From: a virus
Taxonomy: Duplodnaviria; Heunggongvirae; Uroviricota; Caudoviricetes
Direction: 5' to 3' (one strand)
IMG/VR virus record: IMGVR_UViG_2737471844_000002
Location: 1-64,000 of that record
DNA length: 64,000 bases
In this document: piece after piece, positions 5,610 to 45,291 of the stretch
How the letters are laid out: each line of letters starts with the position of its first letter
Position numbering within the stretch: the first letter of the stretch is position 1
Program-made: the position numbers and the translations under genes
Notes under the pieces: generated by a model
The model's database searches: none
What the model saw: only the letters and a program-made list of their open reading frames with translations
What the model was told of the DNA's origin: nothing

Positions 5610-5866
5610 ATGACGGCAGAGTACATCAGGGACTGGCAACAACCGCGCCACGCAGTGGGGCGTGAAGGAACGGGGATCCCCGCTCCTGAATCCGCGCTTT
5701 CCTCCTGGCTGGATGCCTACCGGGCAGAGAACGAGCGCCGCCAGGAAATGGCTGATGCGGCGTTCTCCGCCACGCCGCTGGGCAACCTGATTAATAAAAG
5801 CCTGGACGCACAGGAAAAACAGGACAAAACCATCACACTGGCAGGAGACGCCAGAAAACAGACACG
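5610..5866 (+). pseudogene. A: Replication initiator gene A, 5-prime fragment, truncated by the Mu-like insertion
   Basis: The ORF reads in frame into the gene A body at 42741 once 5867..42740 is removed; its apparent stop (5874..5876) lies inside the inserted element. Confidence 0.7.
5862..5866. repeat. Target-site duplication ACACG, left copy
   Basis: Identical 5-mer at 42736..42740. Confidence 0.6.
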
Positions 5867-6022
5867 TGTGGGGTAGTGATCAATTCTGGACTGAGTGAGA
5901 ACAGCCTGGACGAGCCTATAAGCCTTGAGTGGCGCAGGATGTGAGAGATTTTACCGATTCTGGATCGTTTTGAAGAAAATGATCAAAAGTACATTTTTTT
6001 GCGCTCAAATCTGGACTGTTTT
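5867..6022. repeat. Left end with three repeats of core TCTGGAYYG (5884..5893, 5958..5967, 6008..6017): candidate transposase binding sites
   Basis: Repeats read directly; spacing reminiscent of Mu L1-L3 as I recall it. Confidence 0.5.
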
Positions 6023-6171: not shown

Positions 6172-6819
6172 TCATGCTGATTTTTTACTTACAGATTTTG
6201 TTTCTTGCTCCGGTGTGACATCGGTCTGATCACCCGGCGATTGTGGTCGTATATGAGATTCAACAATTCGCAAAATCTCTCTGTCAGTATCTTCGTTTCC
6301 ATGTAATGCTACTCGGATTGCATCCTTAAGTGATTTCCTGATATTCAGACTTTGGATAGCATTCTCTTGCTCCTCCAGCGTGTTAGCGGCTTGTTTCGCT
6401 TGCCTAGTGGGTTGTTGCAGACGTTTTAGGATTCCTTTGATACCCATATCACATATTGCATTTATCAATAGTTCTTTATCTTCTGTGGACGCTCTTTTCA
6501 ATAACTCGTTAGCTAGCTCGTTTGTAATATCGGGAGAAGGCTGCGCTGTTTGGTTTGATAAAGAGTTTGCTGTGGCGGTGAGTTCCTCACCATAAGCGAG
6601 CCAATTTAAACTCACCTGCTCTTTATCTGAGATAAGGCAGGCTATTTTAAAAGAGGGTTCTGTTCCTTTATGGATGTAGTTGTTTAAGGTTGAAGGAGGG
6701 ATACCCCAGTCGCTCGCGGCAGTTCTGACACTGCGCCCACCTATTAGTTTTACTAAACGCTCTCTAAAACTTTCTTTTCCTCGGTCAACTAAAGAAAAAG
6801 CGTCATCATTTTTTGTCAT
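6172..6819 (-). CDS. Mu c-like repressor (DNA-binding)
   Basis: Leftmost gene, divergent from ner; RBS AGGAAAGGA before ATG at 6819; SVRTAASDWGIPPSTLNNYIHKG...VSLNWLAYGE resembles a phage repressor HTH. Confidence 0.6.
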   Translation of the reverse strand: MTKNDDAFSLVDRGKESFRERLVKLIGGRSVRTAASDWGIPPSTLNNYIHKGTEPSFKIACLISDKEQVSLNWLAYGEELTATANSLSNQTAQPSPDITNELANELLKRASTEDKELLINAICDMGIKGILKRLQQPTRQAKQAANTLEEQENAIQSLNIRKSLKDAIRVALHGNEDTDREILRIVESHIRPQSPGDQTDVTPEQETKSVSKKSA

Positions 6820-6952
6820 TTTTCCTTTCCTATTTAACCAATTGATTTTCAATCACAAAACCATATAAAGACCAAAAGCAAAAAGAAAATACAAAGAAAA
6901 GGCTATTTTTGCTTTACATGGGTTACATATGGATCAATACTTATATCCGAAG

Positions 6953-6985
6953 GGATAACACGGCGGTGTTATCCGCACGGATAAC
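6953..6985. promoter_or_regulatory. Operator-like inverted repeat GGATAACACGGCGGTGTTATCC plus extra GGATAAC half-site
   Basis: Read directly between the repressor and ner. Confidence 0.4.
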
Positions 6986-7001
6986 TTTTAAGGGTAACCT
7001 A

Positions 7002-7238
7002 ATGATGGTTAGAAATGAAGTAATGAACCTGGACTGGCACCGCGAGTACATTGTCGCAGCTGTGCACACCAAAGGTTTTACATTGCGTGAACTTTCTGAA
7101 CGCGCTGGTCTAAAAAAAGACTCTTTAAAAAATGCACTGTATCGCTCATGCCCTAAATATGAACGCATCATAGCCGATGCTATTGGTGTGGAACCTGCGG
7201 AGATCTGGCCAAGCCGGTATGCCAGTAAGGCGGCATAA
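7002..7238 (+). CDS. ner: Ner-like DNA-binding protein
   Basis: DWHREYIVAAV...LRELSERAGL...ADAIGVEPAEIWPSRY closely matches the Mu Ner / Nlp family as I recall it. Confidence 0.85.
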   Translation: MMVRNEVMNLDWHREYIVAAVHTKGFTLRELSERAGLKKDSLKNALYRSCPKYERIIADAIGVEPAEIWPSRYASKAA

Positions 7239-9280
7239 TGTTTTATTCAGCCAATGAACTGGCCGGTCTTACTGGTTTGCCCGGTACAGTTCAGGGGGTG
7301 CGCTGGACGCTCAATCGGATCACAGAGACGCACCCGGAATGGAAGCGCAAGCGTGAAGGCACCAAAGCATTCGAGTATCACATCGACTGCCTGCCCGCTG
7401 AAGCGCAGAAGGTTTTACGTAAGCGCCTGACTCATCAGGTTCTGGAAGATGCGCAACTGCCCGCCGTGGTTGAGCAGAAGGCAGTTAAGAACGTCACCAT
7501 TCGCGATGAACTGGAAGTGATGGTCAAATGCCCGGAGCTGGCATTACGCGAAGTTCAGGCACTGACCGACAAGCAAAAGGCCATCGCTGATGCGCGGATA
7601 TTGCTGGCTACCGAAGTGCATAAACTGCGTGAATACGCAGGAATGTCCAGGACGGCAGCGATAAAACACATTGTTGATGGTATCCGCCAGGAGGCTTTGC
7701 CCGAGCGCGTTATTGTGGCAGGTAATACCGCCAATGCCCGACAGGGTAAGCGAACTGGCGTCAGTACAGGGAGTTTACAGGAATGGTATTCCGCCTGGCT
7801 GATGGCGCGCGGTGATGCCAATCAGTTACTGGCGTTACTGTCCCCCGGTCATCATAAGGGGACACCGTGGGAGCAGGTCTGGTGGTTGAGCGATTTCTTT
7901 ATGTTCTATCGCTCATGGAAGCGCCCGACTGTTGAATATGCGTATCGTGAGTTTTCAGTCTGGTGGCATGAAAAACACGCGAATGATGCGGGAATGCTGG
8001 CGGCACTGCCTTCAGTTCACGCAGTAAGACGGGTGTTAAGCAACGTCCCGGTGATTGTTAAGGAGCGTTTCCGCTCCACCGGTTCAGCCTGGCGTTCGCT
8101 CAATCCCTTTGTGCGGCGCGACTGGAGCACATTACCGGTTAATGCGGTATGGGTCGGGGATGGTCACTGTATGAAAATGACCGCGTTTAACCCCCTGACC
8201 GGCAATATTTTCCGGCCAGAGGTGACGCTGGTTATGGATGCGGGGCAGCGCTTTGTTGTGGGCTGGTCACTGTCCCTGTCGGAAAACGTGATAGCCGTTG
8301 CTGATGCGCTGCGTCATGGCATGTCACAGCACGGGATACCGCTGATTTATTACTCCGATAACGGGGGCGGCGAAAAAAACCGGGTGCTTGATGCCGATAT
8401 TACCGGGATTTTGCCCCGGCTGGGTGTGGAGCATCACACGGGGATACCAGGTAACCCACAGGGGCGCGGGGTGATTGAAAGGCTTAACAAGGAAATTCCC
8501 CGGGATGTGGCCCTGAGTTTCCAGACGTACTGCGCAAGGGATGCAGACAAGGAAACCGTAATGATGCAGCAACGGATTATGCAGTCAGCCATTAAGGCCA
8601 CCCACAAAGGGAAAGAACTGACAAAACGGCAGGTTAAGGCGAGGGATGAAATCCCCACCTTTGAGCAACTGATGGCAGCCATAGAGCTGGAGGTCAGACG
8701 CTATAACAACCGGCCACACAGCAGCCTACCCCGCAAAGAGGATGGCGAATATTACAGCCCGGCAGCGTATCGCCGGAAACTGATAAAAGAGCAGAATGTT
8801 GAAATTGATTTCCTGTCGCCGGAAGAACTGCATGAAATGTTCAGGCCGGAAGTGACGCGCAAAACATTTCGCGGGGAAATTCAGTTATTCAACAATATTT
8901 ATTACTCATATGATCTGGCCGCAGAGCACGGGAATGAAGTCAGGGTCAGTTACGATATTCATGATGCAAACAGCGTCATTGTCCGGCGGGCTGATGGCTC
9001 TTATATCTGCGATGCCATCTGGAACGGTAACAAGGTTGATGCCTTCGCTAAACCAGTTATCGAACAAAAACTGGAGAAACGCGTCAGGGGCCGCATTGCA
9101 CGGGCCACGCAGAAAATCGAAGAGGCTAAACGCGAGCTTACCCCGGCTATTACGCAGAAGCCTGACTTTAATCTGGGATATAGACTGGAGCGCCCGGAGA
9201 AAAAGGAAAAAGAAGAACTTTATTTATTCGCATCTGAACGCGAGCGCAATTTAAAGAAAAACGGCACAAACAACCGTTAA
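7238..9280 (+). CDS. A: Mu-type DDE transposase (MuA-like)
   Basis: 680 aa, directly after ner and before the AAA+ B protein; Mu transposase domain organisation. Confidence 0.9.
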   Translation: MFYSANELAGLTGLPGTVQGVRWTLNRITETHPEWKRKREGTKAFEYHIDCLPAEAQKVLRKRLTHQVLEDAQLPAVVEQKAVKNVTIRDELEVMVKCPELALREVQALTDKQKAIADARILLATEVHKLREYAGMSRTAAIKHIVDGIRQEALPERVIVAGNTANARQGKRTGVSTGSLQEWYSAWLMARGDANQLLALLSPGHHKGTPWEQVWWLSDFFMFYRSWKRPTVEYAYREFSVWWHEKHANDAGMLAALPSVHAVRRVLSNVPVIVKERFRSTGSAWRSLNPFVRRDWSTLPVNAVWVGDGHCMKMTAFNPLTGNIFRPEVTLVMDAGQRFVVGWSLSLSENVIAVADALRHGMSQHGIPLIYYSDNGGGEKNRVLDADITGILPRLGVEHHTGIPGNPQGRGVIERLNKEIPRDVALSFQTYCARDADKETVMMQQRIMQSAIKATHKGKELTKRQVKARDEIPTFEQLMAAIELEVRRYNNRPHSSLPRKEDGEYYSPAAYRRKLIKEQNVEIDFLSPEELHEMFRPEVTRKTFRGEIQLFNNIYYSYDLAAEHGNEVRVSYDIHDANSVIVRRADGSYICDAIWNGNKVDAFAKPVIEQKLEKRVRGRIARATQKIEEAKRELTPAITQKPDFNLGYRLERPEKKEKEELYLFASERERNLKKNGTNNR

Positions 9281-9298: not shown

Positions 9299-10192
9299 AT
9301 GAGTTTAATTACGCAATTAAATGACGTAATGGCCCGTCGCGGCTTTACGCAGACCCACGTTGCCCGTGCTATTGGTCGTAGCAGCGCCGTTATCAACCAG
9401 TATTTGCAGGGCAAATATCAGGGCGATATGGCTGATATTGAAGAACGCATTTCTGCCTTTGTGACCCGTGAGCGGGAAAAGGAAAACAGCCGCCGTATTA
9501 AAGCGAAATTTGTTGCCACCGGTATGGCTGCCAAAGGACTGGAAGTGCTGGCCTATGCTCACCTGGAATGTGAAATCTGCGTACTGTATGGCGCGGCAGG
9601 TCTTGGCAAAACAATGATTCTGCGTGAATACGCCGCCAGAAACCGGGATGCGGTCCTGATTGAAGCTGACCCGGGCTATACAGCCAGAACACTGCTTGAG
9701 GAGCTGTGCCGCCAGCTGGGGGTAAAAGTTCGCGGCAATATCCACGAACTGATTGATGCATGTGTGCGAGAACTGCGTGATTCCGGTCGCCTGCTGATGG
9801 TGGACGAGGCTGAACTGCTCCCCTATCGCGCACTGGAGGTTCTGCGCCGTCTGCATGACAAAGCGGGTATCGGGATTGTCCTGGCGGGTATGCCACGCCT
9901 TCTGATTAACCTCAAGGGACGTCGCGGTGAGTTCGCCCAGTTATACAGCCGTGTGGCGCTGGCGCTTAACCTGGGTGATACGCTGGCGCAGGAAGATTTT
10001 AACCAGATAGCCACCGGGCTGATGCCGGAAGCAGCAGAGCCGGAAATCAGCGAGGCGCTTTATACACGTTCGCTGGGTAATGCCCGCCGCCTGTTCAAAC
10101 TGGCGCGTGGTGTGTACCGGATTTGTGATATCAGCGATGCGCCGGTCAGTGTGCAGGCCATTGATAAATTCGCAGAAATGTTAATTCACTGA
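9299..10192 (+). CDS. B: Transposition ATPase (MuB-like, AAA+)
   Basis: Walker A GAAGLGKT, Walker B LLMVDEAE, N-terminal HTH. Confidence 0.9.
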   Translation: MSLITQLNDVMARRGFTQTHVARAIGRSSAVINQYLQGKYQGDMADIEERISAFVTREREKENSRRIKAKFVATGMAAKGLEVLAYAHLECEICVLYGAAGLGKTMILREYAARNRDAVLIEADPGYTARTLLEELCRQLGVKVRGNIHELIDACVRELRDSGRLLMVDEAELLPYRALEVLRRLHDKAGIGIVLAGMPRLLINLKGRRGEFAQLYSRVALALNLGDTLAQEDFNQIATGLMPEAAEPEISEALYTRSLGNARRLFKLARGVYRICDISDAPVSVQAIDKFAEMLIH

Positions 10193-42649: not shown

Positions 42650-42735
42650 ATTTTGCGCTTTATTCTGGATTTTTTTTATTATGTCAACCGTTCAAAATAA
42701 AGCGCTAAATAGTCCAGAAAAAATCGCGAAGTTAC
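42650..42735. repeat. Right end of the Mu-like element with inverted copy of the terminal motif (AGTCCAGAA at 42711..42719)
   Basis: Reverse complement of the right terminus matches the left terminus in register at 17 of 26 positions when the right terminus is taken as 42736. Confidence 0.5.
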
Positions 42736-42740
42736 ACACG
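42736..42740. repeat. Target-site duplication ACACG, right copy
   Basis: Identical to 5862..5866. Confidence 0.6.
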
Positions 42741-45291
42741 CGGCGCGGTGGATGAAGCCATGGCCTCGCTGCGCCTGCTGCCGTCCTATCTGCGCGATCC
42801 GCTTATTCGCCACCTCTCCTTCCTTCGCAAAAAACAGGAAGCCGATCGCCGGAAAGGCAAAAAGAGCTGGCAGGCGGAACGCTATGCACGCGGAACCCTG
42901 CGCAAAATATTCGAACGTCTGGATCGCACTGACGGACGCTGGCTGACACCGGGTTATCGCTCCCTTGCCGGACGCGAACGCCTGGACGATTTGCTTTACC
43001 TGCCGCAGCTCAACAAACACCAGATACAGACGTTGGCCACCATGACGGCGGCGATGTTCAGCAGCACCTTCGAAAAGCTCTGCGATGGCTTTGGCGCCAG
43101 AGATGGCGAGCTGACCATGGATGTAATGTTGAAGGCTTACCGGATGCTGGCTCGTATCGCATTACGCCTGCACATCATGCCGCCACATTACGAAGCCCTG
43201 AACAAGAGCGAACCGGATACGGAACTGCTGCCGGGCGCAATCCTTCGCCTGACCTGTGCGGACTGGTGGAAACGCAAACTGTGGCTGTTACGTTGCGAGT
43301 GGAGAGAAGAACAACTCCGCGCCGCCTGTCTGGTTTCCAGAAAAACATCGCCTTATCTGAGCCAGGACGCGTTAAGCGAGTTTCGCGCACAGCGCGAGAA
43401 AACACGCGATTTCCTGAAAAGTTTCATGCTGGAAAACGAAGACGGGTTCACGATTGATCTCGAGACAGTGTATTACGCGGGAGTAAGTAACCCGGTTCAC
43501 CGTAAGGCAGAAATGATGGCCACCATGAAGGGGCTGGAACTTCTGGCCGAAGCCCGTGGTGACAAAGCGGTGTTTCTGACTGTCACCTGCCCGTCAAAAT
43601 ACCACGCAACAACGGAGAACGGTCATCCGAATCCCAAATGGAACGGGGCCACCATGCGCGACTCCAGCGATTACCTGGTTAACACGTTTTTTGCGGCGGT
43701 CCGCAAGAAACTGAACCGCGACGGCCTGCGCTGGTATGGCATCCGCACGGTGGAGCCTCACCATGACGGCACCGTGCACTGGCATATGATGGTCTTTGCC
43801 CATCCGGAAGAAATCGACACCATTGTGTCCCACACCCGCGATATTGCCATTCAGGAAGATCGTCACGAGCTGGGCGATGATATTACTCCGCGCTTTAAGG
43901 CGGAGTATGTCGACGGCTCAAAAGGCACGCCAACCAGCTACATCGCCACCTACATCGGAAAAAACCTGGACAGCCGCGCCGTGGATGGCATCGCCCCGAA
44001 AACAGGCAAACCACGCGTTGACCACGAAACCGGAAAATCAATGGCCGAGAGCGTGGAGCGCGCCATCGGCTGGGCGCGCCTTCACCGGGTCCGCCAGTTC
44101 CAGTTCTTTGGCATCCCCTCCCGTCAGGTGTGGCGTGAACTGCGCCGCCTTGCCAGCCAGATGGCACGCAACCCGGAAGGCCCGCAACGGCTGAAGGACG
44201 ACGCAATGGATGCGGTACTCGCTGCCGCTGATGCCGGGTGTTTTGCCTCCTACATTGAAAAACAGGGTGGCGTACTTGTTCCACGCAAGGACTACCTGAT
44301 TCGCACCGCCTACGACCTCGCAGATGAGCTGAACGATTACGGCGAACAGAGCGTACAGATTTACGGGATCTGGTCACCACTCATCGGGGAATCCTCCCGT
44401 GTGTGCACGCACCCGGATAACTGGAAGCTGGTAAGACGTAAACCGGAAGCGGAAGACAGCGCCCGCGAAAATTGTTTTGACCTTCAGGGCGGCCCTGCCG
44501 CCCCTTGGACTCGTGGCAATAACTGTCCCCGTGTACAGGAAACGGACAACAACGGGACAGAACAGCCGGAAGAACGGCCAGCACCGTGGCCGCAGCTTCC
44601 TGACGGCGTTGATGTGGATGAATGGATGCGCTCACTGAAACGGCACGAACGCCGGGCGCTGATGCGTTCGCTGCGTGACAAACAGGCCAAAAACAGCAGT
44701 GATGAAATGCAGAACTGGACACAGAGCCGCAAACAGCCACAGCCTTTGCCTGATAAACACGAATTACTCGCTAAAGAATGGCGGGAGTCTGCCGAATCTC
44801 TCGGCCTGCATATCGGTGAACAGCAGATGCAGCACCTGTTACGGGGCGGCAGCCTGTACGTTGACGGCAGCATCATTGCACCGCAGGGATTTGAAATTGT
44901 ACGCAAACCGGATACCCGCCCGGACAGCCGAATCACGCAGCTCTGGCAGCGCCTGAGCCGTAATCACGGCGTAAGCAGCACGGAGATCCGCCATAACCCG
45001 GTCGCCAGCTATCTGGCACAGCTCGGGGCATCAGACCCCGAAGCCGCCGCACGCCTGGCATCCACACTTCAGCAGGACCAGAACACCATGAAAACACCCG
45101 TTACCGTGCTTTCTGACATGCTGCGCGCCATTCGTGACGCAGAGCACGCACAGAGAATCAGTGAAACCACTGAACACGCCCGCCGCAAAGCAGACCTGCT
45201 GCGGGGTAGCCTGACCAGTGGCAACAAAAAACAGACAGAAACGGGATTCACAAATCCCGCAAATGAGCAAAAAACGCGCCGCGATATATGA
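42741..45291 (+). pseudogene. A: Replication initiator gene A (P2 gpA-like rolling-circle endonuclease), 3-prime part separated from its 5-prime end by the Mu-like insert
   Basis: TVTCPSKYH and VEPHHDGTVHWHMMVF motifs match my recollection of P2 gpA; frame continuous with 5610..5866. Confidence 0.8.

Follow-up and report, generated by a model that had tools for sequence, protein, structure and literature searches.

Positions 5867-42736 of the window, the 64-kb stretch of DNA analyzed here (64,000 nucleotides), are a Mu-like prophage of 36,870 bp, which belongs to the Mu family of transposable prophages and interrupts a P2-like replication endonuclease gene. Over its 36.9 kb the element runs collinear with a prophage in E. 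coli strain C5 (93-97% identity), for which the RefSeq annotation lists Mor, GemA, a Mu-like gpT head protein and Mu-type contractile-tail genes. Repressor, Ner-like, MuA-like and MuB-like genes sit just within its left end. The genes at this end of the element and the two parts of the interrupted gene are as follows.

5610..5866, plus strand, 5' part of the P2-like replication endonuclease gene that the insertion interrupts (target; from uninterrupted homologues)
6172..6852, minus strand, repressor-like gene with a CI-type HTH (Pfam Phage_CI_repr, E = 3.7e-6)
6909..7238, plus strand, Ner-like winged-helix regulator (Pfam HTH_35, E = 2.3e-25)
7238..9280, plus strand, MuA-family DDE transposase, 680 aa (Pfam Mu-transpos_C, 1.3e-16; HTH_Tnp_Mu_1, 5.4e-9)
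9299..10192, plus strand, MuB-like AAA+ ATPase of the MuB/TniB type (Pfam AAA_22, 1e-22; TniB, 3.5e-7)
42737..45291, plus strand, 3' part of the same endonuclease gene (in empty sites it follows directly on the 5' part)

Several features place the element in the Mu family. A MuA-type DDE transposase is encoded beside a MuB-type AAA+ ATPase near the left end, the termini are 5'-TG...CA-3' (TGT at 5867-5869, ACA at 42734-42736), several imperfect repeats with inverted terminal copies can be recognized at each end at the sequence level, and insertion is near-random, at nine loci, each with a fixed 4-bp target duplication. In the transposase, Mu-transpos_C and HTH_Tnp_Mu_1 scored above the Pfam cut-offs and rve below (9.6e-5, 23 bits versus a cut-off of 32.6 bits), and the family of the Mu end-binding subdomain gave no Pfam match at E <= 0.001. 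Its identity to MuA is 22% (BLASTP, E = 1e-7). A megablast search with the left 3 kb of the element against the phage collection returned no match to any phage record; a protein-level search of phages for the transposase found relatives at 49% identity or less.

The interrupted target is a common gene: uninterrupted and annotated as "replication endonuclease", it is found in about 1,000 complete E. coli genomes, and the reading frame of its 3' part extends to 45291. Since both flanks of the element belong to this P2-like gene, a Mu-type prophage has transposed into a P2-type prophage. The split of the gene and a 4-bp duplication, CACG, at the insertion point are both read directly from the DNA, and the insertion should have disabled replication of the P2-like prophage. 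A related Mu-like prophage in strain UMNF18 lies within a P2-like tail gene.

The ends of the element carry a repeated motif. Alignment of the sites from the element and its relatives gives a repeat of about 20 bp, TTnGCGCnnnATTCTGGAC, present in three copies per end, in place of the 9-bp core that the original prediction had taken for the repeat unit. We number the sites L1 to L3 and R1 to R3 from the respective tips; together with the target-site duplication they are laid out as follows.

5863..5866, no strand, left copy of the 4-bp target-site duplication CACG (from the flanks of nine insertions and the empty allele)
5867..5892, plus strand, left terminus, with TGT (5867-5869) and putative site L1, core ATTCTGGACT (matrix match at 5872-5892)
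5920..5938, plus strand, conserved block AAGCCTTGAGTGGCGCAGG in the L1-L2 spacer (kept in the E. coli copies and partly in distant relatives)
5946..5966, plus strand, putative site L2, a weak copy, core GATTCTGGATC (ATT.TGG columns invariant in ten left ends)
5997..6017, plus strand, putative site L3, TTTTGCGCTCAAATCTGGACT (second-best match of the right-end matrix in the window; conserved in relatives)
42651..42671, plus strand, putative site R3, inverted relative to R1 and R2, TTTTGCGCTTTATTCTGGATT (best match of the right-end matrix)
42689..42709, minus strand, putative site R2, adjoining R1, with the degenerate core TTTTGAAC instead of TTCTGGAC
42711..42736, minus strand, right terminus, with putative site R1 (42711-42731) and ...GTTACA (last element base A at 42736)
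42737..42740, no strand, right copy of CACG (same basis as the left copy)

Both L1 and R1 begin 5-6 bp inward of the terminal 5'-TGT...ACA-3' and share one register, and L2 and L3 follow about 74 and 125 bp further inward from L1. With the right end at 42736, the left 26-mer TGTGGGGTAGTGATCAATTCTGGACT (5867-5892) and TGTAACTTCGCGATTTTTTCTGGACT, the reverse complement of 42711-42736, are identical at 17 of 26 positions; these are the sequences and the count first proposed. The binomial probability of such a match is 1.6e-5 to 2e-4 for a single fixed register, and the match is meaningful only because the register was fixed beforehand, as three unrelated 26-mers from other parts of the window do just as well against the left terminus (17/26). 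The 9-mer core occurs at the left end at 5884 (TTCTGGACT), at 5958, 74 bp further in (TTCTGGATC, 7/9 bases only), and another 51 bp on at 6009 (ATCTGGACT). Of the two additional left-end copies expected from the first reading, the one at 6009 is thus sound and the one at 5958 is weak. Copies in both orientations had been claimed for the right end, and these are found at 42663 on the plus strand (TTCTGGATT) and at 42711-42719 on the minus strand (TTCTGGACT); the degenerate core of R2 had been left out of that list.

Two weight matrices, one built from right-end sites only and the other from left-end sites only, were used to scan both strands of the 64-kb window. The right-end matrix ranked L3 second (24.0) and L1 fifth (16.8), while for the left-end matrix the best matches outside the left end were R3 (24.4), R1 and R2 (15.6); with the matrices partly built from sites homologous to those scored, only this cross-end comparison is independent. 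The highest scores in shuffled sequence were 20.6 and 19.3 against the cross-end scores of 24.0 and 24.4. The top 5-6 matches all fell within the termini, and nothing else in the window came close. L2 scored 16.8 with the left-end matrix and was absent from the top list of the right-end matrix, where it is near noise level. Our assignment of three sites per end is based on the cross-end matrix test, on conservation and on comparison with the site map of Mu.

We detected the left 3 kb of the element in 59 of 5,426 complete E. coli genomes (about 1%), including EPEC E2348/69, and in many of these the match begins with the very first base of the query. Prophages with both ends were retrieved in eight cases, plus the prophage of strain C5 as a ninth left end. 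The eight insertion loci are eutC (EPEC E2348/69), trg-ydcA, scpC, a lambdoid prophage, melR-melA, yfcC-pta, a P2-like tail gene and yigF-rarD. Homology with these independent insertions begins exactly at 5867. The E. coli copies start with TGTGGGG and end with CGCGAAGTTACA, the sole exception being the copy in E. coli Z1323CEC0014 (NZ_CP148426.1, here L010); the tips are TGT...ACA in seven of the eight other delimited copies and AGT...ACA in L010. All retrieved E. coli copies carry L1, L2, L3, R1, R2 and the inverted R3 at aligned positions. A metagenome scan with the right-end pattern yielded eight true ends and one chance match (L024), and the same pattern found no match in reference genomes. 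The eight metagenome right ends show the R3-R2-R1-GTTACA arrangement followed by unrelated sequence, and an inverted R3 copy was found in all eight related right ends and in six metagenome ends. The comparison with other insertion sites that had been suggested as a check thus bore out the proposed termini: the boundaries of other copies fall on the same bases and the core is found in them, the tip substitutions of L010 aside.

Two lineages can be distinguished among these ends. When all six end sites were compared between the window and L003-L008, one core position differed in every site: the window, C5 and UMNF18 have GGAC, and E2348/69 and the others have GGGC. The pattern points to whole ends having recombined or to their sites having changed in concert. 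Co-evolution of the GGAC and GGGC cores with transposase specificity was considered and set aside because L010 mixes both types. L010, which has AGTGGGG...GTAACA in place of TGTGGGG...GTTACA, combines GGAC-type left sites with GGGC-type right sites and is probably a recombinant with a damaged left tip. In strain C5 (L002, NZ_CP010122.1), which carries the closest relative, the IS21-family element ISEc12 (istA/istB) lies between R3 and R2 at about 38230 and parts the right terminus from the rest of the prophage.

In a protein-guided scan that took a single genome for each species, relatives of the transposase turned up at 23-61% identity; most belong to Enterobacterales, and Vibrionaceae contributed a few weak matches. 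In Serratia, Pantoea and Sodalis relatives, with transposases 32-61% identical to that of the window, the left ends also start with TGTGGGG and contain three (A/T)TTCTGGAC cores at spacings of 73 and 51-52 bp, as in the window. In an alignment of ten left ends, positions 1-7 and the cores of L1, L2 and L3 are invariant, as are a short AAATG block and a run of T followed by GC before L3, while the spacers between the cores diverge. Invariant cores in divergent spacers are the footprint that would be expected of protein-binding sites. Two blocks outside the cores, AAGCCTTGAGTGGCGCAGG (5920-5938) and AAATG (5977-5981), are also conserved as far as the Serratia, Pantoea and Sodalis relatives; these could be a packaging or host-factor site. 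A promoter and terminator scan of the left end gave nothing above shuffle expectation.

Taken together, these observations make it very probable that the element is a Mu-family prophage of 36,870 bp whose left attachment end is 5867-6017 and whose right one is 42651-42736, with putative transposase sites and a 4-bp target duplication. From their position, their conservation and the analogy with Mu we infer that the end repeats are binding sites of the element's own transposase, and the 680-aa MuA-like protein (7238-9280) is presumably their reader. The multi-site, Mu-type transposase-binding ends envisaged in the original prediction are supported, as putative sites, by the MuA- and MuB-like genes, by termini shared among different loci, by the conserved cores and by the Mu-like map. 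By analogy with Mu, monomers of the transposase would bind the end sites, and the bound protein would synapse both ends and nick after the terminal CA-3'. The transposase and the MuB-like ATPase would then join both 3' ends to target DNA, and the staggered joining would leave a 4-bp duplication (CACG in the window) as compared with 5 bp in Mu.

The repeats may instead serve some other function of prophage ends, such as pac, repressor or host-factor binding, or transcription insulation. The Mu pac signal sits inside the Mu left end, and the further conserved blocks between the cores at 5920-5938 and 5977-5981 would be in line with such a role. We nevertheless consider this unlikely, given that the same motif is present at both ends with its terminal copies mirrored and in identical register from the cleavage site, which a transposase would need and a one-sided pac or operator would not require. 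No good copy of the motif was found in the rest of the element, the neighborhood of the repressor/Ner intergenic region included, and the layout of three plus three sites with an inverted R3 is that of the Mu transposase sites. Transposase binding is thus the reading that we retain for the repeats.

Among the sites of the window copy, R2 is the unusual one. Relatives have ATTCTGG[G/A]CGG at the aligned position, from which the core of the window copy departs by two changes. In Mu there are three MuA sites per end, and L1, R1 and R2 suffice for a stable synaptic complex (PMC3145075). Since R2 is a core site in Mu, its degenerate core may impair the window copy, which may transpose poorly. The last ~130 bp of the right end are a divergent version with the degenerate R2, shared only with strain C5.

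The exact position of the right end had been left ambiguous by one base, with a clean 5-bp duplication pointing to 42735 and a TG...CA terminus pointing to 42736. The element ends TG...CA at 42736, and its target-site duplication is 4 bp, CACG; the apparent 5-bp duplication was misleading. An A follows GTTAC (GTAAC in L010) in 17 of 17 independent right ends, and the flank pairs have exactly 4 bp in common in nine of nine insertions. The K-12 empty sites at eutC, trg-ydcA, yfcC-pta and yigF-rarD each contain one copy of the respective 4-mer. At trg-ydcA, the K-12 host reads AACCTC-TTTG-CGTCAC and the occupied site ...CTC TTTG [TGT...ACA] TTTG CGTC...; since the empty site lacks both the T of TGT and the A of ACA, neither base is host DNA and four bases were duplicated. 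Joining the window flanks with a single CACG produced a 400-base query that aligned without gaps over empty alleles, and no genome in the collection matched it at 100%. The best empty allele, in strain DSM 103246, has one CACG and matches at 399 of 400 bases with no gap, the sole mismatch being position 5862, which is A in the window and G in that strain.

An element that ends at 42735 (...GTTAC) and has made the Mu-standard 5-bp duplication, here ACACG, is very unlikely in view of these data. This sequence is present at 5862-5866 and 42736-42740 and therefore looks perfect on both window flanks, and Mu does make 5-bp duplications (PMC8705779), yet the appearance arises because 5862 happens to be A, a coincidence next to a 4-bp duplication, and this A is the very base that is G in the best empty allele. 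Likewise, the fifth left-flank base is A in five of the nine insertions, C in two and G in two, while the right ends carry A throughout. The K-12 empty sites have C (trg-ydcA) and G (yfcC-pta) at this position, so that the A is not derived from the host. Setting the terminus at 42735 would also cost the terminal CA and the common register of L1 and R1, with the terminal match falling to 3/26.

Two variants were tried and rejected. Taking the T at 5867 as host DNA, for a 5-bp duplication around a GTG...ACA element, fits yfcC-pta only and fails at the other eight sites. Conversion of the flank base to A upon insertion, considered on account of the A at 5862 against G in empty alleles, does not agree, as a general mechanism, with an A that is native in K-12 at eutC, melR-melA and yigF-rarD, nor with the flanks at trg-ydcA and yfcC-pta, which did not change upon insertion.

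That the core matches are merely chance similarity in AT-rich non-coding ends is hardly credible: although the 9-mer is not enriched over the whole window (11 matches with at most one mismatch versus 9.2 expected) and unrelated 26-mers can equal the terminal match, four of the 11 matches fall within the two 155-bp terminal segments (310 bp; 0.05 expected, P about 3e-7), the cross-end matrix scores exceed the shuffle maxima, and the cores are invariant across genera where the spacers diverge.

The 4-bp duplication of these transposable ends departs from what is usually described. A 2021 paper on transposable prophages gives 5 bp for Mu and 6 bp for B3 and treats a "5/6 bp duplication" as the recognizable scar (PMC8705779). 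We found no published report of a 4-bp duplication in a Mu-like phage in the literature searched; the SuMu and PluMu papers do not give the duplication length, and "direct repeats of 3-7 bp" are mentioned in a published study for the Mu-like prophage CRP99 of C. rodentium. In GenBank record LC727881, an Sp18-type Mu-like phage that lies within an Stx phage is annotated with a 4-bp duplication, and we confirmed 4 bp in Sp18-type prophages (CATC in LC727881, TAAA in Sakai Sp18). As far as we have seen, the 4-bp length has thus been noticed by at least one group in annotation and does not appear in published descriptions of transposable phages. It looks like a property of a wider enterobacterial clade. 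Whether a MuA-family clade comprising both the TGTGGGG-ended and the Sp18-type elements joins its ends with a 4-bp stagger is a proposal that we regard as evenly balanced. If true, it would add a third duplication class beside Mu (5 bp) and B3 (6 bp), and boundary searches following the 5/6-bp rule (PMC8705779) would mis-set such ends by one base, an error that the original prediction came close to making. If general, the 4-bp duplication would be a small, concrete correction to the "5 or 6 bp" rule for delimiting transposable prophages and would offer a naturally occurring variant in which to study how Mu-type transpososomes set their target stagger.

Exact boundaries, 5867-42736, together with the duplication CACG, allow correct annotation of the split P2-like replication gene. 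Six putative transposase sites are now defined for a prophage family present in about 1% of complete E. coli genomes, which may be of use for example in mini-element tools. While the feature itself is of a well-understood kind, the ordinary attachment ends of a Mu-type prophage, the ends of this E. coli prophage family do not seem to have been described before. What the analysis adds is the exact boundary, the full six-site map, the conservation of geometry across very divergent transposases and the 4-bp duplication.

The EPEC E2348/69 prophage in eutC and its E. coli counterparts are members of one family with the element, at 88-96% nucleotide identity across its left 3 kb. These share identical terminal bases (L010 excepted), the same six sites and the 4-bp duplication, and most of them differ in having GGGC for GGAC in every core and an intact R2. 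In this family the annotation goes no further than "Mu transposase C-terminal domain-containing protein" and similar. Sp18-type prophages (Sp18 of E. coli O157 Sakai; Mu_JNE082796 in LC727881) have a transposase 44.5% identical to that of the window; they are likewise enterobacterial Mu-like prophages that start with TGT and are flanked by 4-bp duplications. However, their end sequences and repeat are different (TTTGATACC type), and their right tip is ...GCTATA (TA) instead of ...ACA (CA). Transposases of D3112-like and B3-like phages are ~30% identical to that of the window. D3112-like phages of Pseudomonas resemble the element in a terminal TGT and in having three putative sites of 22 bp at each end (PMC4378225) and differ in the pattern of spacing and orientation; there it is R1 that is reported to be inverted (PMC4378225). 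B3 duplicates 6 bp of its target, and its transposase is of the Tn552 type (PMC8705779), whereas the present element has a 4-bp duplication and a transposase with Mu-transpos_C and HTH_Tnp_Mu_1.

The element does not belong to Muvirus (Mu sensu stricto): the duplication is 4 bp in nine of nine insertions, four of which do not allow a reading of 5 bp, megablast found no match in the phage collection, the transposase is only 22% identical to MuA, and the end motif is unrelated (TTTCAC...GCGAAA in Mu, GCGC...ATTCTGGAC in the window). Yet Mu and the element both have the terminal 5'-TGT...ACA-3' and three sites of ~20-22 bp per end (PMC3145075), and their site maps are nearly superimposable. Counted from the tip, the positions compare as follows.

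L1: Mu 5-26, window element 6-25
L3: Mu 150-171, window element 131-150
R1: Mu 5-26, window element 6-25
R2: Mu 27-48, window element 28-47
R3 (inverted): Mu 57-78, window element 67-86

Both also have a long L1-L2 spacer, abutting R1 and R2 and an inverted R3, and the same adjacent gene order of repressor, ner, A and B. Within its L1-L2 spacer Mu carries CAAGCCTGTAGTGC, at a place comparable to that of the block AAGCCTTGAGTGGCGCAGG in the window. The end architecture of Mu, with three plus three sites, an inverted R3 and L1 and R1 in register, thus persists despite near-complete divergence of the transposase and of the motif, which favors a functional requirement for the geometry itself.
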